Shown one piece after another: positions 30,582-64,000 of a stretch of 64,000 nt of DNA (its first letter is position 1; each line of letters opens with the position of its first letter). The stretch is from contig CAVYQD010000001.1 in the NCBI GenBank assembly GCA_963770575.1, forward strand, positions 800,569 to 864,568. Reading direction: 5' to 3'. The notes beneath the pieces were generated by a model. It was not told the origin of the DNA. It ran no database searches and saw only the letters and a list, made by a program, of their open reading frames with translations. Origin of the DNA: an uncultured Acidobacteriota bacterium. GTDB taxonomy: Bacteria; Acidobacteriota; Terriglobia; Acidiferrales; UBA7541. The position numbers and the translations under genes are program-made.

Positions 30582-33500
30582 ATGAGCAATCTGACTGGTA
30601 AAGGTGTGCGCTCTCTCTTTATTTGTTTTGCACTTTTGCTGCTCGCGCTGAGCGTCACGTCCGCTTCAGCGCAAACCTTCCGCGGAACCATTCTCGGCAC
30701 AGTGACCGACTCGAGCGGCGCCGCAATCCTCCACGCCAAGGTCACAGTCCGAAATGTCGACACAGGTATCGAGCGCATAACCGATACGAACGCCGACGGC
30801 AGTTTTTTAGTCCCCGAGCTCGCTATTGGCACTTATACGGTGACTATCGAAATGGCCGGATTTCAGAAAACAGTTACCACCGGGGTGACGGTCGACATTG
30901 CTTCCGAACGGCGCATCGATGTTTCACTGAAACCCGGACAGATTAACCAACAGGTGGTCGTAGAAGGAGAAACCCTCCCTCAGGTTGATACCACCTCTGA
31001 CACTCTCGGTGGAACGATCGAAAGCCATCAGATCGAAAGCCTGCCGATCAATGGCCGCGACTATACCAAACTGCTCATCATGGTTCCCGGTGCCGTCGGC
31101 GAGCCGAACGGCGGCGGCGATTCTCCCGGGTCGTATGGCCTGTTCAGCGCGAATGGGAGCCGAGGCCGCTCGAACAATTACTTGCTGGACGGTACGGACA
31201 TGAATGATGGCTATCGCAACCTTCCGGCGATCAATCAAGGCGGCGTGTTTGGCGTACCCGGGACGATTCTTCCCGAAGACTCCATCTCCGAATTGAGTGT
31301 TCAGTCTAACTTTCAGGCCGAGTACGGACGTAATTCCGGCGCTGTCGTAAATATCGTGACGAGGAGTGGAACGAACACTCTCCACGGCGCAGTCTTCGAG
31401 GATTTTCGCAACGCCGTTTTGAATTCGAGAAATTATTTCAACACGACCGACCAGCCGAAAGATGCATTCCGCAACAATCAGTTTGGAGGGGCAGTCGGCG
31501 GACCAATTGTGAAGGATAAAGCATTTTTCTATCTCTCCTACGAAGGCCAACGGGAAGGCATGGCGATCACGTCGATCAATTCAGTTCCTACCCTCAACGA
31601 TGGTGTGGAGAATGATCCCAATGACTACGCGCAAGCGATTCAAAGCATCGGCGGCAATCCAGCCGTTTGCACCACCACGGTTATCGCTTGTATCGACGGG
31701 CAAGCGCCGGGAGTAATCAATCCTGTAATCAAGAACCTCTTCGATCGGTGCGCAAGCACGGGCGGATGCTCGGGCGGGCAAAATGTGTGGCCCACCACGT
31801 CCCAGATTGGCGGCCCGGCGAGCAACAACCTGGACAGCGTGATCGCAAAGATCGATTACAACCTGAATCAGTCCAACCAGATTTCAGGGCGATATTTCTT
31901 CGGCAACAGCCATCAGAGTTTCCCGCTCGGCGTAGGAGGAGGAAACAATCTTCCCAACACCAATACCGATGCGCCTATCCGCACACAACTCGTGTCGGTG
32001 AGCTGGATTAAGAACATATCAGGTGACAAGACCAATGAGGCTCGATTTGGTTGGAACCGTTACCGCAATGGTTTTTTCCCTCAAGATGCCGGAATCTTTG
32101 GAAATCCGAATGACACGCTGGAAATGAACACAGGTATAACCGACCCCCGTGATTTTGGGCTACCCACAATTAAGGTTGGCGGACTGGCTTCGCTTGGCTC
32201 CTCTGCCTTTGCCAACCCTCGTAATCGCGTGGACAGCAACTGGCAGGCCTTCGACAATTTCACATGGACGCTGAATCGCCACGCAATCAAGGTTGGGTTC
32301 GAGTTTCGTCGAACAACAGTTGATTCCTTCAATGATTTGAACGAACGTGGCACTCTGAAATTTTCAGGCGGCCTCGCGGACTTTCTTACCGGAGACTTGA
32401 GCGGCGGCACGCTCGTGGCGGGCAACACATCGCGAAACACATCTCAAAACTCGGAAGCGCTGTACATTCAGGACAGCTACCGCGTGACGAGCCAGATCAC
32501 TGTGAACCTCGGCCTTCGCTGGGATTATTTTGGAGTCATTGGCGATAACGGGCAGTTCAGCATTTACGATCCAAACGTCGGCCTGGTTCTGAAAAGTCAG
32601 CTGTACCCGAAGGACTTCAATAACTTCAGCCCGCGTGCAAGCGTAGCGTGGGATGTGTTCGGGAAGGGAAAGACCGTAGTCCGAGCAGGCGTTGGCATTT
32701 TCTATGACGGTTTTTCGCAGGATTTCTTCACCGGCCAACTCGCCGAGAACACATTTAACACGGGCCCGGCATATAACGCGATCGGGCCGAATCCCGTCTT
32801 CATTACGACGGCGCTCAACACCCCTACCTTGCAGCCAGGCGTACCCATTTTTACCGGGGTTGCTCCCGGCGAAGGAAACTCCACGACCGATGCATTCAGC
32901 GTTGCACGAAACCTTCGCACGCCTTACGTTTACAACTACAACTTGAATCTCCAGCAGGAGATTTTCCGCAATACTGTCTTGCAGGTTGGCTACGTTGGAT
33001 CTGCGGGAAGAAAACTATTTCGCTTCCGGGACATAAACCAGCCGAATCAGGCGCAAATCACCGCGATCGACACGTTCTGCGGCACTACGGACGATCCAAA
33101 CGCACGCGGCTCGGAGGAATGTCCCGGTGCTCCGGTGCAGGGCTTCACCACTCCGCTCGGTGCGCTTGCACCGAACCTGCCCTTCTACGTAAATCAACTC
33201 GAGACGGAAGCGACGTCCAATTACAATTCGCTTCAGGTGTCACTCTCGCAACGAAATTGGCATGGCCTTAACACTCAAATTGCATACACGTGGTCGCATT
33301 CGATTGATACCGCGAGCGACGGCCAGGACTTCGTCCCCAACGCGGCTCAGCCGAATGACAGCACGAATCCGGGCGGGAACAAGGGACCTTCCAACTTTGA
33401 CGCTCGCAATCGACTCGTTTGGTCGTCCACGTATGACATACCCAAGTGGGAGAAGATCGGAAAATTCGGGGAAGGCTGGTCGCTCAGCGGCATATTAACG

Positions 33501-34037
33501 ATAATGTCCGGCCACCCATTCAATCTGAACTATGCGTTTGAAGACGACTACAGCGGTAGCGGCGAGTTCTTCGATCGGCCGGATGTTGTAGGGCCAATCG
33601 TCTACAATCGAAGCAACCCTTCGCAATATCTGCTGATGACTTCCTTTGCCACGCCCTGCACGATGCAGGAACCCTTCGACGGTTTCGCGGATTCTTGCGT
33701 TCCTGGCACCCGGCACTTCGGCGACATGGGGAGGAACTCGTTGCTGGGTCCCAACTATCGCAACTTCGACTTTGCGATCAGCAAGATGACCTCAATCAAT
33801 GACCGGTTCAAACTGCAATTTCGAACCGACTTCTACAACCTGACGAACCATCCAAACTTCGCGAACCCGCTGATGCCGGCGTTCTTTGCCGATGCCGGAT
33901 TTAACGGTATCGGCGGCGATGGGCGCAGTCTCGGGTTCTATCCCATCACGGCGACTTCGGACGTCGGCTTGGGGAATCCCGTACTCGGCGGCGGAGGACA
34001 GCGCAGCATTCAGTTCGGCTTGAAGCTGCTGTTCTAG
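30582..34037 (+). CDS. TonB-dependent receptor with N-terminal carboxypeptidase-regulatory-like domain
   Basis: 1151 aa; signal peptide ..LSVTSASAQ; GTILGTVTDSSGAAILHAKVTVRNVDTGIERITDTNADGSFLVPELAIGTYTV (CarboxypepD_reg pattern); plug region (INGRDYTKLL); beta-barrel ending ..IQFGLKLLF. Confidence 0.9.
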   Translation: MSNLTGKGVRSLFICFALLLLALSVTSASAQTFRGTILGTVTDSSGAAILHAKVTVRNVDTGIERITDTNADGSFLVPELAIGTYTVTIEMAGFQKTVTTGVTVDIASERRIDVSLKPGQINQQVVVEGETLPQVDTTSDTLGGTIESHQIESLPINGRDYTKLLIMVPGAVGEPNGGGDSPGSYGLFSANGSRGRSNNYLLDGTDMNDGYRNLPAINQGGVFGVPGTILPEDSISELSVQSNFQAEYGRNSGAVVNIVTRSGTNTLHGAVFEDFRNAVLNSRNYFNTTDQPKDAFRNNQFGGAVGGPIVKDKAFFYLSYEGQREGMAITSINSVPTLNDGVENDPNDYAQAIQSIGGNPAVCTTTVIACIDGQAPGVINPVIKNLFDRCASTGGCSGGQNVWPTTSQIGGPASNNLDSVIAKIDYNLNQSNQISGRYFFGNSHQSFPLGVGGGNNLPNTNTDAPIRTQLVSVSWIKNISGDKTNEARFGWNRYRNGFFPQDAGIFGNPNDTLEMNTGITDPRDFGLPTIKVGGLASLGSSAFANPRNRVDSNWQAFDNFTWTLNRHAIKVGFEFRRTTVDSFNDLNERGTLKFSGGLADFLTGDLSGGTLVAGNTSRNTSQNSEALYIQDSYRVTSQITVNLGLRWDYFGVIGDNGQFSIYDPNVGLVLKSQLYPKDFNNFSPRASVAWDVFGKGKTVVRAGVGIFYDGFSQDFFTGQLAENTFNTGPAYNAIGPNPVFITTALNTPTLQPGVPIFTGVAPGEGNSTTDAFSVARNLRTPYVYNYNLNLQQEIFRNTVLQVGYVGSAGRKLFRFRDINQPNQAQITAIDTFCGTTDDPNARGSEECPGAPVQGFTTPLGALAPNLPFYVNQLETEATSNYNSLQVSLSQRNWHGLNTQIAYTWSHSIDTASDGQDFVPNAAQPNDSTNPGGNKGPSNFDARNRLVWSSTYDIPKWEKIGKFGEGWSLSGILTIMSGHPFNLNYAFEDDYSGSGEFFDRPDVVGPIVYNRSNPSQYLLMTSFATPCTMQEPFDGFADSCVPGTRHFGDMGRNSLLGPNYRNFDFAISKMTSINDRFKLQFRTDFYNLTNHPNFANPLMPAFFADAGFNGIGGDGRSLGFYPITATSDVGLGNPVLGGGGQRSIQFGLKLLF

Positions 34038-52731: not shown

Positions 52732-53238
52732 TTATTTCGCGCCGTGTGCGGCGGACGCAGCCGGCGCTGCGTCATACTTCTTCAAATCCACTTGCTTCCA
52801 TTTGCCGGCCATGATTCCGGCGCGGATTTCGGCGGGCGTCTTTCCCAATTTCGTTTGCTGATACGAGTACGCGGCTTCCTTCTGGCAAACTTCGCAAATC
52901 GATCCGTGATTGTCGCCAAAACAATCGAGCAGGCTGGTGTGGCCCACTTCGCGATCGCAGTGGCAGTAGCAGGGCTGCTGATAGAGGACAGGTTTCACCT
53001 TCGCGGCGAGCGCGTACAGATTCTGCGTGCGCGCGTCGGGGAATTGCTTCGGGTCGAGCGTCGCGGGCAGAGGCCCTGTGGGAGCGGTTGCGTGATACGC
53101 CGGAGTGTCGTCTTGCGCGCTTGGAGTGGCAGCGGATTGCGCGGCGGAGGCGCTCTGTTGCATGAATCCAAATCCCAATCCAAATCCGGCCAATGCCATC
53201 GCCAGCACAACGCCAAAAATGAGAGCTCTTTCTTTCAT
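52732..53238 (-). CDS. secreted Cys-rich protein with CYCHC motif
   Basis: ORF 52732..53307; inner ATG 53238 after GGGAG. Signal-like MKERALIFGVVLAMALAGFGLGFG. QQPCYCHCDREVGH...CFGDNHGSICEVC. Confidence 0.55.
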   Translation of the reverse strand: MKERALIFGVVLAMALAGFGLGFGFMQQSASAAQSAATPSAQDDTPAYHATAPTGPLPATLDPKQFPDARTQNLYALAAKVKPVLYQQPCYCHCDREVGHTSLLDCFGDNHGSICEVCQKEAAYSYQQTKLGKTPAEIRAGIMAGKWKQVDLKKYDAAPAASAAHGAK

Positions 53239-53419
53239 CTCGCATCTCCCTGCCAGCCGGCCAACGACTGAATACCGGCTCGTTTTCGACGCCTCAAATC
53301 GTATCACGGAACCAGCGGCGCTCAGCTTCGCCCCGCGCGTTCAGTAATGTTGACTCGCGCGTCTCGCTGGCATAACGTTTCCGCGAGCACAAGCCGCAAA
53401 CACCCTCGAGGACAACAAC

Positions 53420-57772: not shown

Positions 57773-58600
57773 TTATTTCGCGCGCGCGAGCGCGTTGATT
57801 TGGTTTTGAGCGAGTGCAATCCGCCATGGATAGACGTCGCTATGCCATTTGGTCGCCTGCAAGTACGATTGCAGTTCGCTCTTGGCGAGCGCGTTCTGCC
57901 CCGTAGCTTCATACACTTCGGCAAGCTCCCAATGGACTTTTGAGTTGTTCGCGAGGTCGCCGGTGAGAGCGATGCTTTGCGATGTGACGGGCGTGAGCGC
58001 GAGCTCGGCTTGAAACGCGGTGATCGCATTTGCGTACGCCTGCTGCTTCGCCGTTGGATCGCTGGCTTGCTGCGCTTCGATCACGTAGGTTTCGGCGATC
58101 AAGGTATTGACGCCAAGTTTTTGCGGATCGATTTGCAGCACTTCCTGGAACAGCTCGATCGCGTTGCTGGGATTTGTTTCACGCAACAGGTTGCCGAGCC
58201 GCAGCCGTACGGTGAACATGCATGGCGCAGGAGTCATCTGCTGCGGAACCGTGCCGTTCACTAAACTCGCTGCTGTGACGATCTGGCACGTGTGGCTTTG
58301 CAAGCTGTTCATCGCAAGTGAGGTCTGGTAGTCGTTGATGGCGTCCGGAATATCGTCCATGTCGTCCTGGAAATGGATGCCGCGTTCCATGTAGTCCCAG
58401 GTGGTTTGCGGCTGCGGGATATTGATCAAATTCCAGTCGATCTTTCCTTCGAAGTAGAAAGGATTTGGTTTTGGATAGTAAGGATTCGCGCTTTGAAATT
58501 CTCCGGGCGTGTACGTAGGGGAGCTTTGCGCGAAGACGGCGACAAGCACGAGCGCAACGGCTATCACGATCAAGGCCGGATATCGGTATCGAATTTTCAT
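57773..58600 (-). CDS. membrane-anchored/secreted TPR-like protein co-transcribed with the 5-haem cytochrome
   Basis: 275 aa; N-terminal hydrophobic ALIVIAVALVLVAVFA; helical-repeat C-terminal half (AIELFQEVLQIDPQ.., YANAITAFQAELAL.., ELAEVYEATGQNALAKSELQSYL). 4-nt overlap with the upstream gene. Confidence 0.55.
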   Translation of the reverse strand: MKIRYRYPALIVIAVALVLVAVFAQSSPTYTPGEFQSANPYYPKPNPFYFEGKIDWNLINIPQPQTTWDYMERGIHFQDDMDDIPDAINDYQTSLAMNSLQSHTCQIVTAASLVNGTVPQQMTPAPCMFTVRLRLGNLLRETNPSNAIELFQEVLQIDPQKLGVNTLIAETYVIEAQQASDPTAKQQAYANAITAFQAELALTPVTSQSIALTGDLANNSKVHWELAEVYEATGQNALAKSELQSYLQATKWHSDVYPWRIALAQNQINALARAK

Positions 58601-60772
58601 GGCGTCGTCAGACTCACAGTAATGTCGTCGGAAGTGATGTTCTGAACATTTTTCAACAATGTGTCGATGCGATGTTCGTTCACGAGATTTAGATCGTGAC
58701 CCGCTGGCCCGTTCGGGCCGGTGACTCCCGCTAGGAACCTCAAAAAGAGCGGCGGGAAATGCTCGAAGTTGATTTGTGCATGGACGTGCAGCGGGCCCTG
58801 AATCGTTACGCCCATGGCCTGAAGCTGCTGCTGGGTGGGAAGTTGAATTTCGTAGTTGTACACCCGCGGATGCAGCGGCTGGAGCGAACGGAAATTATCA
58901 ACGGAGTTCGCGAGCGCCGCTTGAAACGTTTCTTCGAAGTGAGCGCCCTTGGCAGTTATTGGCTGTCCAGTATTTGGATCGATGCGTCCGATTGCCTGCC
59001 CCGGAAGGAAAATGTGCGTCAACTCATTGCGGAAGAGGACGAGGCCTTCCTGCGCGCCGACAAATACGCGCGCATCGGGACCATCGTCCGGGCCTGACTC
59101 GAACAGCAAATTGTTGCCGCCGTTCGTCCCGGTACCTGCCGTGAACGTGGCTGTATGAGTGCCCGGATCGACGATGGCGTGGAGATGTTCGAGGTCTTCG
59201 TCGTCGAGATTGCCGTCGGGCGCCGCCTCGCCCGTATTCGGATGCGGTTTGTCGACCAGATAGCCGGACTGGTACAGAAGGAATCCGTTGTTGTCCGTGA
59301 CGGCCATTTGGACGTAGACGGTTCGCTCTTGCGAAAATCCCGCAGGGAGCCGGTGGCCGGTGAGTGAAACTGCTTCGAGCCTCACTGTGAATTTCTGGCC
59401 CAGTTGCGCGGATGTATCTGTCTTGCTCAGCGTGAGCCGCGCGGCCGCCTTCATCAGATCTTCGCGACGAGTAGAGAGGCCGTTGGGCACGCCGTGCGTG
59501 TCCATTCCGGTTGCGTTGGGATCGGGATAGGGACCCAACCGTGAGCTCAATTCATTTACGGTGAGGAGGGGAACGTCGACGCCCGTGAAGTAGTGTTCGA
59601 CGACTTTGCGTTGCGGAAGCGCAGCGTTCTGGTCCGTCGAAACTCCCGGAACCGCGGCGTAAGTCGGTGGCAAACATACCCGGCGTGGGAGTGGTCACGG
59701 TCATATCGCCGACCTGATAGGTGGTGCTGCCGGCGTATGGGAACAGCGACATGTGGCAATCCTGGCAACGAACGATCTGGCCGAATGGATTGCTCGTGCT
59801 GTTATAGGGACCGACCTGCCACTCGGTGCTCAAATTTTCGAGGCGGAAGTAGCTGACGTTTTGACCGCCAGGATTCATGTTGTGCTCTTCAGCGGTCAAG
59901 TTCCGGTTAGGAACGCGCACGTCATGGCAAGTGTTGCAGAAAGCTCCTGCGCGCAGGAATGCGATCTTGCCGGAGTCGTTGCTCACGACGTGGAAATTAT
60001 TTTTGACGGCTACGGGAAACAGGAACGGCCCGGTTTTCAGGGTCGTCTGGTTCAGCAACAGGCTGGTGTTCGCGAAGCCGTCCATCTGCAAGCTGCGATG
60101 GAGGTCCGGCCCGTTTTCGTCGTGGCAGAAGTCGCAAGAAATTCCGGAAGCGGCGAGAGAAGGCATAGAGCCCGCCGGCGGATCGCCACCCGGTACCGGC
60201 GGCAAAGTCTGATTTCCATTCGCGTCGACGAGCACATAGTCCCGCAGCGGCCGGAACAATTGCGGCTGAAAACATTGCTGGCCCGGGGGCGGCGCAGGAT
60301 TACAGGTGCCCAGGCCGGGAATCTGCGGAACTTCCCGCAGGGCTGGATTTTCGCCCAATACTTCGGCATTCGCATTGTGACAAGTAAAACAAAAACCCGC
60401 CTGCACCTGGCGCGTTTCGGTGAGGACCGGCGAGCTATACATGTTCGTATTCAGAAGCGTGCCATCTGGAAGGACGATAGTGCTGTCCTTGTATACGGGG
60501 CGCAGCAAGCCGCCATTCACGAGATTGCCGGCCGATTCGAGGCCATTGAACAACGGGCTGACGTTGCGGTAGCCCGATTTCACGGCACTGTGAAGCTCGT
60601 CATACTGGCGCTGGTGGCACGGCAAACAATTTTCCGACGGTTGAAACGACTGCGGCTGAAAAGAAACGACCGGAGGATTGGGAACACTTTCAACCTGCGT
60701 GCCGCTGCACCCGAGCTGCAGGATGCAAAGGAATGCAGTACCAGCAGTCGCAATGAGAGCCCGGAGACGCAA
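58597..60772 (-). pseudogene. lipoprotein-like multihaem c-type cytochrome (5 CXXCH) with a Cys-free C-terminal domain; apparent frameshift
   Basis: ORF 59552..60772: MRLRALIATAGTAFLCILQLGC (signal plus possible lipobox). Motifs CLPCH, CFTCH, CDFCH, CNTCH, CQDCH. ORF 58597..59673 continues in another frame (..TPTPGM | LPPTYAAVPGVSTDQ..). The junction is at the AAA run 59672-59674 (+ strand). Confidence 0.75.
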
Positions 60773-61154
60773 AATCGTTTACCTGCCGGAAAAGATGCTG
60801 GAGAGCGTATCGCAGTCGCTCGGATTATTGCAATTGAAATGAGTCCGCGAGGGCTTATATCCGGCGCAGAATTTCATTCATGTACCTCTGTGAAACTCAG
60901 CGAAGCGAAAACAGACGCTGCATCACAGACAATCTAGTAAGGTCGGATGCGGGTGATTACGGAATGATCGCAGCGGTCAAGATTCGAAGAGCTTTTCAGT
61001 TGTGAAGTATATGTTCCTATGTAAAATGAGGCCCCAACGGGGGTTGTGCCCGATGGATACCGCTCAGAGCTGACCCTCCGGTTTTTGTTTTTGCGACAGC
61101 GCTTCGTGTAGTGCGCCATTCAATAGATTCGAATCTGTCAGCAGGTAGATCTGG

Positions 61155-62852
61155 ATGTTGCCGTGGATTTGGAGCAGCGTTTTTGCCGGTCGAATCGCGA
61201 CCGCAGGAAAAAGCGTGCCAAGGCAGTCTCGATATCTACTTTCGTTGAGCGTTTTCGCGCTGGCGCTTTCGTTCGCAAGAAGCGCGGGCGCACAGCAAAG
61301 TTCGTCTCCGCCACTTCCCGATAAAGCCGAGAAGTCGAATCAGAATATTGCGGACGACTGGGGAAGCCTGCTGCACGACACGATTCCACAGACGCAAGTC
61401 GATCCCAACCTCGCGGTTCCTCAAAATGCATTCGAGCACACCGCCGGGCAGGATTTTCTGGACCACTTCTTCTACGAAAGCCGCCTGGATTATATTCGAA
61501 CGCAAACGTATTTTACGGGGAACCCAACTGCGACGGGCGTAATCGACGGTCCGCCCAGCCCGGTGCAGAACCCTAACGGGATTGTCGATCCGGCAGTTTT
61601 TCAGCCCAGTACGAACATGATGTACGCGTTTATGAATTGGGGCACGCGCGGCTGGCTATCGGACCGTCTGAACACAAATTTTTCGTTTCGCTACGAGCAG
61701 AATCTCACGCATGTGGACGACGGATCGCCTGGGCAAAGCATTCTCACCACGTTTCCTTCGAGCCGGAGATTGGAATTGCTTTCAGGCTATGCGGAGATTC
61801 AGGGGCGCGCTTCGGACGGGGTGTTTGCCGGAACTTCGCTTCGTCTGGGGCGGCAGAATATTTATGGCGCGGAAGTGGCGTCGCTGGACGGCGCGTCGTT
61901 TACGATGGCCCGAAAGAGATATTCGTACACGATATTCGGCGGGCGGCGTTTCACGTACTACTCCGATCCGGCGCAGCGAGCGATCGGCGGCGGGAGCCTC
62001 GACCTGCACTTCGGAGATAGCGGAATTTTTCAGTACGAAGCGCTTTTCTACATCAAAGGCAGCCAGGTGTTTTCGTACCGGCAGCGATTCGGCCGCTCGT
62101 GGATGTTCAGCACGTACTACAAAATGATTGGCGGCGCGGCGATCGACTACGGCGCGAATGCGATCTGGACTCCCGGCGGCAGCGGGAAAACGATGGTGCG
62201 CCTCGGCTACCTCCAGAAGCTCACCGACCAGGATTATTTTTACGATTACACGGAAGGCGCGCGGGACCACGATATTCACAATCCGGTGTTGCGTCTGAAT
62301 CTGGGTACGTTTTCGCCGTACAGCCAATTTCTGGTGGATGCGCGACGGACCGTAAATTCCCGAGTTTTGTTGAGCGGCGGAGTGATTGTCCTTCACCTGA
62401 ACGATTCGAGCCAGCAGGGGCCGTTCGATACTTCGTACCAGGATTATCGCGCCGACGCGCAGGTGTATCCCGGCAGGCAGTACGTGTTGTTTTTCGAGTA
62501 CCACGAAAGAGACTCGGATCGATTGAGTTCCGCCAACGTGACGCAATTGAGCGATATCAGCACGACGGGCGAAACGAAAATCCGCGATTTCAGCGTAGAG
62601 CTCGGCCACACATATATGGATGGAAGGCTCACGCTAAAAGCCGGCGGCTTCTTCCGGCTGCTCAACTTTCAAGACGCGTTCACGATCATCAATGGCGCGC
62701 ACGATTTCGGAATGCTTGCGACCGCGCAATTCAAACTGGACCGTCGAACGCGTTTCTATCTCGATTACGGGCTCGATAGCGATTATTTTGTGTTCCGGCC
62801 GGATATTCAGAACGCCCAGACGTTCCGTGTGGGCATGGCGTGGACATACTGA
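61155..62852 (+). CDS. predicted outer-membrane beta-barrel protein (porin-like), family unassigned
   Basis: 565-aa ORF. An alternative GTG at 61215 after AGGAAA gives a cleaner signal peptide (PRQSRYLLSLSVFALALSFARSAGA|QQ). Many alternating amphipathic strands (NTNFSFRYEQ, ASFTMARKRYSYTIFGG, WMFSTYYKMIGG, YVLFFEYHE). C-terminal ..FRVGMAWTY. Confidence 0.65.
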   Translation: MLPWIWSSVFAGRIATAGKSVPRQSRYLLSLSVFALALSFARSAGAQQSSSPPLPDKAEKSNQNIADDWGSLLHDTIPQTQVDPNLAVPQNAFEHTAGQDFLDHFFYESRLDYIRTQTYFTGNPTATGVIDGPPSPVQNPNGIVDPAVFQPSTNMMYAFMNWGTRGWLSDRLNTNFSFRYEQNLTHVDDGSPGQSILTTFPSSRRLELLSGYAEIQGRASDGVFAGTSLRLGRQNIYGAEVASLDGASFTMARKRYSYTIFGGRRFTYYSDPAQRAIGGGSLDLHFGDSGIFQYEALFYIKGSQVFSYRQRFGRSWMFSTYYKMIGGAAIDYGANAIWTPGGSGKTMVRLGYLQKLTDQDYFYDYTEGARDHDIHNPVLRLNLGTFSPYSQFLVDARRTVNSRVLLSGGVIVLHLNDSSQQGPFDTSYQDYRADAQVYPGRQYVLFFEYHERDSDRLSSANVTQLSDISTTGETKIRDFSVELGHTYMDGRLTLKAGGFFRLLNFQDAFTIINGAHDFGMLATAQFKLDRRTRFYLDYGLDSDYFVFRPDIQNAQTFRVGMAWTY

Positions 62853-62856
62853 CGAA

Positions 62857-64000
62857 ATGAGCGGACGCCTCCAACGAATTGCCGTCGCGCTGCTTGCGCT
62901 CGTGGTGTGGCTGGGGTGCGTTCGAATTTCCGGCGCGCAACAGAGTGCGCCCGCACCGGCTGCAGCAGCGCCCGGACCTGCCGCCGCGCCTGCTGCGAAA
63001 CCTGCTGCGCCAGGCGCTGGCGCGCCCGCAACGCCTTCGAACGAACCTTTTTTTCTGCACGCGTACCACATGAAGACCGTCGGCCTTGAGTGCGACACGT
63101 GCCATGTCCCGCAGAAAGAGGGTTCGGTGGTGTTGCAGCGGCCCGGCCACGACCAATGCACTCCATGCCACGAAGAAGCGTTCAACGAAAAGCTAAATCC
63201 CAAAATTTGCGCGCAGTGCCATTCGGATTTTCCGCCCACGAGCTCGGACGGCTTGTTTCCGTATCCGCGTTTCAAGGGCCAGCGCTCACTGCTGATCGAT
63301 TTCGCGCATTCTCGCCACGTGGATCCGCAAGGGCGCAACGATTCCAGAACCGGTTTTCGCGCGGATTGCGCTTTCTGCCACAGCTTCGACGCGCAGGGGC
63401 TCTATGCGAAATTCCCGACTCACGCGCAATGCACTTCGTGTCATGCGAAGCCCGGCTTCAAGCCGGTATTGAGCGCGAAATCGACGACTGCGGATTGCCG
63501 CGGCTGCCACGCGCCGGAAGAAATTGAGAATCCGGATTCGGCTACGCATCACGCGGAGCTTTCTGCGCAGGTGCTTACCGGAACTTATGCGGGAATTCGT
63601 TTCTCGCATGTGGCGCACAACAAAGTTCGCGATGAATACCACGTGAATTGCACCACCTGCCACTCGGATGTGTTGAAGAGCACCGGCCTTGCCGATCTCA
63701 CGCTTCCGAAAATGATCGATTGCGTCGGCTGCCACGACACGTCGAAAAGCATTCCGGCACAATATTCAATGTCCAACTGCAACGTCTGTCACGTGGATGT
63801 GAAGAACGGCCCGATGCCTCCGAGCCACAGCCGCTACGTGAAGCCCGCTTTCCACGATGAAAGTTTCCGCCAACATCACTCGGAACAGGCGTCTGAAGCC
63901 AACGCGAAATGCTTTGTGTGCCATACGAACGTTTCTCCGTCGGCGACCGTGAAGCAGCAATGTGTTTCGTGCCACGAGGTTTCGCGCCCGATTTCCCACA
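62857..64000 (+). CDS. multihaem c-type cytochrome (at least 11 haems), concatenated c7/c3-like modules; 3-prime partial
   Basis: Not in the ORF track (no stop before 64000). Hand translation from ATG 62857: MSGRLQRIAVALLALVVWLGCVRISGAQQ, an Ala/Pro linker, then CDTCH, CTPCH, CAQCH, CAFCH, CTSCH, CRGCH, CTTCH, CVGCH, CNVCH, CFVCH, CVSCH within 381 aa. Starts 4 nt after the beta-barrel gene stop. Confidence 0.85.
   Translation, partial: MSGRLQRIAVALLALVVWLGCVRISGAQQSAPAPAAAAPGPAAAPAAKPAAPGAGAPATPSNEPFFLHAYHMKTVGLECDTCHVPQKEGSVVLQRPGHDQCTPCHEEAFNEKLNPKICAQCHSDFPPTSSDGLFPYPRFKGQRSLLIDFAHSRHVDPQGRNDSRTGFRADCAFCHSFDAQGLYAKFPTHAQCTSCHAKPGFKPVLSAKSTTADCRGCHAPEEIENPDSATHHAELSAQVLTGTYAGIRFSHVAHNKVRDEYHVNCTTCHSDVLKSTGLADLTLPKMIDCVGCHDTSKSIPAQYSMSNCNVCHVDVKNGPMPPSHSRYVKPAFHDESFRQHHSEQASEANAKCFVCHTNVSPSATVKQQCVSCHEVSRPISH

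Follow-up and report, generated by a model that had tools for sequence, protein, structure and literature searches.

The cytochrome gene at the end of the window

The DNA analysed here is a 64-kb stretch (the window) of contig CAVYQD010000001.1 from an uncultured Acidobacteriota bacterium (assembly GCA_963770575.1). It ends within a gene for a multihaem c-type cytochrome, which lies directly downstream of a gene for a predicted outer-membrane beta-barrel and close to the genes of an exported TPR-repeat protein and a five-haem cytochrome. The same four genes occur together in other Acidobacteriota, and in this work they are considered as the parts of a putative conduit for electrons across the outer membrane. 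The cytochrome gene begins with the ATG at 62857 on the plus strand and is cut by the window end at base 64000, so the window holds the 5' 81% of the gene (62857..64000, 381 of 468 codons) and 11 of its 15 CXXCH motifs. Translation of this frame gives 381 codons with zero stops, as claimed in the original prediction, which had been made from the window sequence and had read the frame by eye. The gene was absent from the list of open reading frames (ORFs) because it runs past the window edge, and stop-to-stop ORF lists in general miss genes that are cut in this way.

The motifs in the window start at residues 79, 101, 118, 171, 192, 214, 265, 289, 308, 352, and 369 (nucleotides 63091, 63157, 63208, 63367, 63430, 63496, 63649, 63721, 63778, 63910, and 63961, respectively). 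Only about 0.02 CXXCH would be expected by chance in 381 codons of the window background. A six-frame count of the window gave 22 CXXCH, namely the 11 of this ORF, five of the five-haem gene, and six elsewhere. The translation agrees in all 381 residues (100% identity) with a public protein, P0001, which has a total length of 468 aa and 15 CXXCH. The full haem count was thus obtained from the identical protein and not from downstream DNA, and the predicted "at least 11 haems" became 15. More than 100 homologues were found at E<1e-115. Furthermore, the G+C content at the three codon positions of the frame (0.61/0.50/0.66) has the pattern of the neighbouring genes with solid Pfam hits, and the pattern of the overlapping minus-strand and alternative-frame ORFs differs from that of confirmed genes. 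Because of the identity with P0001, the homologues, the invariant haem motifs, and the codon-position G+C, the frame 62857-64000 is confirmed as a real coding gene. The minus-strand ORFs 62634-63338 and 63286-63762 are its shadows, as had been proposed, since both the codon-position G+C and the homologues favour the plus frame. The public annotation of these proteins is limited to "cytochrome c3 family protein", "Cytochrome c7 and related", and "hypothetical".

Haem modules and candidate ligands

Behind its signal peptide and a linker of variable length, the protein has three c7-like modules of three haems each and then a tail with six, which amounts to one haem for about every 29 residues of the mature part. 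All 15 CXXCH are conserved without exception across 47 aligned homologues with 50-63% identity to P0001. The same is true of 14 further His residues (68, 71, 98, 151, 154, 189, 251, 254, 333, 341, 381, 390, 421, and 432) and of Met286. The 14 His and one Met would provide exactly 15 candidate distal ligands, and it is from this conservation that we infer the haem ligation.

The Cytochrome_C7 model of Pfam (PF14522, gathering cut-off 24.8 bits) matched the window fragment in three stretches with a total of 60.1 bits, and the Pfam matches of the fragment were of the c7/c3/MtrC type. Module 1 (residues 63-125, 63043..63231, plus strand) contains H68, H71, C79xxCH, H98, C101xxCH, and C118xxCH, all of them invariant, and reached 30.4 bits on its own over model positions 3-67 of 67. 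Module 2 (residues 143-221, 63283..63519, plus strand) contains H151, H154, C171xxCH, H189, C192xxCH, and C214xxCH. It is more divergent, with 17.3 bits, which is under the cut-off; the ligand pattern of module 1 is nevertheless invariant in it. Module 3 (residues 243-315, 63583..63801, plus strand) contains H251, H254, C265xxCH, M286, C289xxCH, and C308xxCH and scored 30.2 bits, above the cut-off, over nearly the whole model. The pattern common to the three modules is F-x-H-x2-H, CXXCH, (H or M)-x2-CXXCH, and CXXCH, and it aligns with the ligand pattern of PpcA. The invariant M286 of module 3 occupies the position of H98 in module 1 and of H189 in module 2. By analogy with c7, haem 9 is probably His-Met ligated.

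The last six haems follow another plan. The C-terminal region (residues 325-468) starts in the window at 63829..64000 on the plus strand, where it is cut at residue 381 and shows H333, H341, C352xxCH, C369xxCH, and H381. According to P0001, haems 10-15 would be bound by the CXXCH pair 352/369 and, beyond the window, by two tandem 40-residue two-haem units with the pattern P-x-S-H, H, and CxxCH-x4-5-CxxCH. All tail ligands are invariant among the 47 homologues. Pfam and NCBIfam scans of the tail gave no curated family at cut-off. The earlier description of the whole protein in terms of c7 modules therefore applies to haems 1-9, with modules 1 and 3 above the PF14522 cut-off, and not to the last six haems with their two-haem units. 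The His pairs quoted with that description (FLHAYH, FAHSRH, FSHVAH, and FHDESFRQHH) are all present in the translation. The haem spacing given as 25-35 residues was loose; by measurement, neighbouring motifs are 17-24 residues apart inside a module and 44-53 apart from one module to the next.

Signal peptide and linker

The signal peptide as read from the sequence comprises residues 1-27 (62857..62937, plus strand; MSGRLQRIAVALLALVVWLGCVRISGA followed by QQ), and cleavage by signal peptidase I is likely to occur after SGA. The homologues align here with a hydrophobic core and then A-x-A followed by Q. The LGC motif, which had been taken for a possible lipobox, is indeed present in the sequence. 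It is not conserved, because a lipobox-like motif was found in only 5 of the 47 close homologues, Cys21 is not a conserved residue, and 20 of the 47 are without any Cys ahead of module 1. The lipoprotein reading was rejected for the family on this count of 5/47. The WLGC motif of the window protein is also off-consensus at position -3, and the window protein alone might still be lipidated. Judging from the alignment, the cytochrome is an exported protein, generally without a lipid anchor among its close homologues. The Ala/Pro-rich stretch described as a tether also exists (residues 28-62, 62938..63042, plus strand). It is a low-complexity linker, which varies across the family from 0 to 58 residues (median 26 in the 47 homologues), and is not conserved. 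More distant relatives with 8-15 CXXCH have mostly clear lipobox-like N-termini, for example VAAC-RG, AIAC-GG, and IAGC-RS (P0270, P0273, P0278, P0281, P0303-P0347, and P0310-P0370), so the mode of anchoring seems to have changed within the cytochrome family.

The predicted outer-membrane barrel partner

The gene upstream of the cytochrome (61215..62852, plus strand; the ORF opens at 61155) encodes a protein of 545 aa, and its stop lies 4 nucleotides before the cytochrome ATG. Public protein P0121 is 100% identical to its translation across 96% of the ORF, and the contig it derives from has the same stated length (2,037,994 bp) as that of P0001. The protein has a signal peptide ending in AGA before QQ, and its C-terminus (FRVGMAWTY) has alternating hydrophobic residues and a terminal Y. 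Such a C-terminus, alternating and closed by an aromatic residue, is typical of outer-membrane barrels. The AlphaFold2 model contains 22 beta strands with a predicted local distance difference test score (pLDDT) of 74. A Foldseek search with this model returned 325 matches at E<=0.001, and all of the matches shown were outer-membrane barrels. The product is thus predicted to be a 22-strand outer-membrane beta-barrel. On the sequence level it belongs to no family: Pfam gave no match, NCBIfam gave sub-threshold hits only, and the profile search of the PDB gave nothing meaningful.

A gene block conserved in Acidobacteriota

A scan with one genome per species yielded 18 related loci (L001-L018). 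All are from Acidobacteriota (Terriglobia, Bryobacterales, and Ca. Versatilivorator), with 41-57% identity in the best tblastn segment. In 18 of 18 the barrel gene is followed by the 15-haem cytochrome gene, abutting or overlapping it, and the intact cytochrome homologues there have 15 CXXCH each. The TPR gene is likewise present in 18/18, mostly between the five-haem and barrel genes, and the five-haem gene was found in all 16 loci that have upstream sequence. The commonest order is five-haem (about 725 aa), TPR, barrel, and cytochrome. The four genes share one direction in most of the related loci, whereas the window has the five-haem/TPR pair in inverted orientation and therefore divergent from the barrel and the cytochrome. 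One locus (L008) carries two five-haem copies downstream of the cytochrome on opposite strands.

In the window, the TPR-repeat protein is exported, has 275 aa and Pfam TPR matches, and is encoded at 57773..58600 on the minus strand. The five-haem gene (58597..60772, minus strand) encodes five CXXCH followed by a C-terminal domain of about 360 aa and of unknown fold. No relative of this protein was found in the PDB by profile search or in NCBIfam, where there were sub-threshold hits only. It has an LGC motif after the signal sequence in the window and in L001-L004 and is without it in the Bryobacterales loci L005 and L007. Among the 16 loci carrying the gene, 11 have it as a single ORF of 714-774 aa with five CXXCH. 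In the window it is divided into two overlapping ORFs, 60772-59552 and 59673-58597. The cause is a 1-nucleotide insertion, an extra T near 59661 on the minus strand, where GACTTACGCC stands in place of the expected GAC TAC GCC (D-Y-A). A different 1-nucleotide insertion is present about 30 nucleotides upstream in the five-haem gene of L002. The split may come from an indel in the assembly, or the gene may truly be a pseudogene.

The divergent intergenic region between the two gene pairs (60773..61214) presumably holds their promoters. A promoter and terminator scan found one weak sigma-70-like site there (61000-61027, plus strand), which was not above the shuffled expectation. An FNR/CRP-type box was also looked for because a cNMP-binding (cyclic nucleotide) regulator lies upstream in related loci; none was found in the intergenic region, and the count over the whole window was not above chance. 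Upstream of the block, L001-L005 encode a NapC/NirT four-haem protein together with the cNMP-binding protein (L001 3527-4947, L003 3518-4940, L005 2050-5111), and this NapC/NirT protein is a possible inner-membrane electron feed. Locus L005 additionally encodes a fusion of an NDH-2-like flavoprotein with a cNMP-binding domain. Neither a NapC/NirT gene nor a cNMP-binding protein was detected in the window by tblastn.

Wider family and cytochrome-barrel fusions

When 1.84 billion representative proteins were searched with the cytochrome profile, 108 relatives had E<=1e-30 and 2061 had E<=1e-3, and sequences were sampled from these to describe the forms of the family. Besides the 15-haem form there are 14-haem proteins, which have an additional N-terminal domain and a length of about 600 aa. 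Forms with 11-12 haems (307-356 aa) are without module 1, and most of them have a lipobox-like N-terminus; forms with 8-9 haems consist of the three c7 modules only and also have lipobox-like N-termini. In proteins with 25-32 haems the C-terminal two-haem unit is repeated many times. Five of these (P0321, P0326, P0330, P0350, and P0352) are made almost wholly of two-haem repeats of about 40 residues, and several of the 25-32-haem proteins begin with a hydrophobic, membrane-anchor-like stretch.

Natural fusions of this type of cytochrome with a barrel are represented by three distant relatives, each with a c7-type N-terminal region: P0320 (982 aa), its 59% identical relative P0389 (1003 aa), and P0357 (870 aa). 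The N-terminal parts of P0320 and P0357 have 11 CXXCH each and match the cytochrome profile with E 1.6e-34 and 3.3e-29, respectively. Over 286-388 columns, hhalign aligned the C-terminal halves of P0320 (probability 89%, E 2e-6) and P0389 (87%, E 4e-6) to the barrel profile; P0357 gave no more than a weak BLASTP hit on the barrel (E 0.002, 88 residues). The fusion barrels share motifs such as LRVGRQ.VY and (F/Y)GG.R with the barrel family of the window, and the termini of P0320 and P0357 (AAGFNF and SLMWRY) are barrel-like. P0320 and P0389 were found on three independent contigs (fusion genes at L019 235-3183, L020 188-3136, and L021 1037-4048), and on each of them another multihaem gene comes next. 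In L019 this following gene corresponds to columns 177-452 of the cytochrome profile, that is, to its C-terminal two-thirds (probability 99.9%, E 6e-37), and because of this homology the order barrel and then cytochrome is kept in L019. The fusions and the order kept in a distant lineage are the strongest evidence obtained here that barrel and cytochrome function as a single unit.

A putative conduit across the outer membrane

With moderate confidence, we hypothesize from these sequence comparisons that the cytochrome is the haem wire of a porin-cytochrome-type conduit and is paired with the barrel encoded upstream, so that the gene set probably lets soil Acidobacteria pass electrons across the outer membrane. 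The cytochrome would sit inside the barrel or dock onto it and would pass electrons along between cell surface and periplasm. The five-haem protein could act as another redox partner, located either in the periplasm or at the surface, and the TPR protein as an assembly or scaffold factor. In some relatives, electrons could be supplied by the upstream NapC/NirT-type quinol dehydrogenase. The natural fusions of both families indirectly suggest that the cytochrome may be sheathed by the barrel. We infer the insertion of the cytochrome into the barrel, the component that faces outwards, and the direction of electron flow. Both the reduction of Fe(III), Mn(IV), or humic matter and the oxidation of Fe(II) are possible.

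Several results weigh against the conduit. Its basis is comparative genomics throughout. The AlphaFold2 model of the cytochrome, made with the 47-sequence alignment, reached a pLDDT of only 57, with the C-terminal third under 50, and a Foldseek search with it against the PDB returned two non-significant matches only. Because this model is poor, the wire shape is taken from haem density and domain homology alone. The structural matches of the barrel are generic (MOMP, FimD, BtuB, and AlgE), MtrB appears among them only at rank 42 (6r2q_B, E 1e-6, TM-score 0.40), and PDB, Pfam, and NCBIfam searches found no sequence relationship of the barrel to MtrB. The hhalign probabilities of the fusion barrels are good and not overwhelming. 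Moreover, the window is without the NapC/NirT gene, and the frameshift in the five-haem gene, if not an assembly indel, may mean that this copy of the system is partly defective.

The original prediction had assigned the protein to the poly-c7 cytochromes of the GSU1996 type, which would make it a free periplasmic nanowire or capacitor, a soluble c7 chain without a tie to the barrel. GSU1996 and GSU0592 likewise carry tandem c7-related three-haem modules on one chain and are exported. The window protein has three such modules, an invariant Met in one of them where the others have His, as in the GSU1996 domains (PMC10138318), and a signal peptide without a conserved lipid anchor. On the other hand, GSU1996 has one His-Met haem in each domain (PMC10138318), whereas a Met at this ligand position was read from the sequence of the window cytochrome in module 3 only. 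The GSU proteins have four modules and 12 haems, in contrast to three modules and a six-haem tail here, so that 6 of the 15 haems lie outside the c7 modules. The per-module scores for TIGR04257 (nanowire_3heme) were at best 24.7 bits (module 3) against a cut-off of 40; for the others they were 16.4, 11.8, or not listed, and the model was not listed for the whole protein at E<=0.01. GSU1996 chains were absent from the PDB matches at E<=1 with the single sequence and at E<=10 with the profile. The assignment to the GSU1996 type is thus not upheld. Furthermore, the gene abuts a barrel gene in 18 of 18 loci, and cytochrome-barrel fusions occur naturally. The original prediction had missed this conserved upstream partner, which favours a porin-cytochrome conduit and makes a free periplasmic nanowire unlikely.

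A second alternative is a periplasmic subunit that collects electrons for an inner-membrane redox complex, like HmcA, NhcA, QrcA, or ActA, and connects periplasmic enzymes with the quinone pool. The best NCBIfam and PDB matches of the cytochrome do point to such proteins, namely QrcA (35.8 bits), HmcA (21.8 bits), and TmcA. With the profile, the closest solved sequences were ActA of alternative complex III (8k9e_A, E 3e-7), then a 16-haem cytochrome (1z1n, E 0.013) and, at E 0.07, a c7. A c7/c3-like module is common to the window protein, ActA, and the 16-haem HmcA of Desulfovibrio. However, each PDB match spans a single module, the scores are far under the family cut-offs (180, 400, and 114 bits; the value of 400 belongs to the HmcA model NF045713), and only one c7-like module is covered. 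The neighbours are also different: the conserved partners are the barrel, the TPR protein, and another exported cytochrome with five haems rather than hmcBCDEF-type genes, and no recognisable membrane, Fe-S, or quinone-reactive subunit is among them, so the membrane partners of HmcA and ActA are absent from the block. A role in an inner-membrane complex is therefore quite improbable. Finally, the possibility that the CXXCH-rich frame is a non-coding artefact or the shadow of an opposite-strand gene, which the two overlapping minus-strand ORFs might suggest, has practically no weight left and is already refuted by the record of an identical full-length protein, by hundreds of homologues with invariant haem motifs, by significant Pfam matches, and by a gene-like codon-position G+C in this frame only.

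Comparison with known conduits

In its working, the proposed conduit would resemble MtrAB and the porin-cytochrome conduits (Pcc) of Geobacter, and by sequence it appears unrelated to Mtr. As in MtrCAB (6R2Q) and MtoAB/PioAB, a haem-dense exported cytochrome is encoded beside a large barrel, with a further multihaem protein in the block. However, the cytochrome here has 15 haems and is built from c7 modules, not from the ten-haem DmsE/MtrA type; TIGR03508 for that type reached 12.7 bits against a cut-off of 192.2 and was not listed for the whole protein. The barrel is predicted to have 22 strands in comparison with 26 in MtrB (quoted in the supplement of 10.64898/2026.05.27.727921). The third component is the five-haem protein with its unknown 360-aa domain and not MtrC, and a TPR protein belongs to the block. 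With OmbB-OmaB-OmcB and ExtABCD of Geobacter the block shares the combination of a barrel, a periplasmic multihaem protein, and a further cytochrome, which is a lipoprotein in some lineages; the haem numbers are 15 and 5 here and 8 and 12 in the Geobacter Pcc. No Pfam or NCBIfam match linked the components to the OmbB/OmaB/OmcB families in scans of the general libraries, which were not direct sequence comparisons.

Two systems have been described in Acidobacteriota of the same orders, EET1, which consists of a porin, an NHL propeller, and a 13-haem OmcE-like protein, and EET2, which comprises MtrC and DmsE together with a porin and a 4-haem protein (10.64898/2026.05.27.727921, Fiorito et al., bioRxiv). 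They too are syntenic blocks of porin and multihaem genes that diverge in sequence from the model systems. Identity with either was rejected on gene content, by comparison with the published descriptions: the block considered here consists of a c7-based 15-haem cytochrome, a five-haem protein, and a TPR protein next to the barrel, had no NHL, MtrC (TIGR03507), or DmsE (TIGR03508) matches in Pfam and NCBIfam, and has no OmcE-like 13-haem component. The PCC3 and PCC4 systems of iron oxidisers include a five-helix protein of the inner membrane, which is conserved, and their cytochromes have median haem numbers of 21-34 (PMC5566968); both features are absent here, and this identity was rejected as well.

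The fusion proteins P0320, P0357, and P0389 resemble Cyc2, in which cytochrome and barrel are also joined in one polypeptide, and they might be regarded as its many-haem analogue, with about 11 haems instead of one; the window system, in contrast, has two separate genes. A full-text literature search found no paper describing this gene block. Porin-cytochrome conduits are thus already known in kind, and this gene set is apparently undescribed. More tentatively than the conduit function itself, we suggest that it could represent an undescribed third family of trans-outer-membrane conduits in Acidobacteriota, with a barrel evolved independently of MtrB and OmbB, a wire of c7 modules, and single-chain fusions in some lineages.

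Possible significance

Acidobacteriota dominate many soils and peats, where Terriglobia and Bryobacterales are among the most abundant members, and the respiration of Acidobacteriota without oxygen is poorly understood. Because of this abundance, a third conduit family, if it exists, could be a significant and so far unrecognised electron route to iron minerals and humic matter. A working conduit would offer a testable route for the reduction of iron minerals or humic matter or for electron uptake, and would bear on soil carbon turnover and on the suppression of methane formation. From the point of view of protein science, the cytochrome would be a compact 15-haem wire of recognisable c7 modules, and the fusions would show which parts pair. 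For annotation, the comparison indicates that genes now carrying the labels "cytochrome c3 family" or "hypothetical" are parts of a single system.

Other features of the window

The window also contains a second large barrel, unrelated to the block, which is a protein of 1151 aa with CarboxypepD_reg and OMP_b-brl_4 domains of the TonB-dependent-receptor type (30582-34037, plus strand). An ORF of 605 aa at 12-1829 on the minus strand had no Pfam match at E<=1e-5. Another minus-strand ORF (52732-53307, 191 aa) has a PCYCGC-motif domain (PF13798) and overlaps a plus-strand ORF of similar size.

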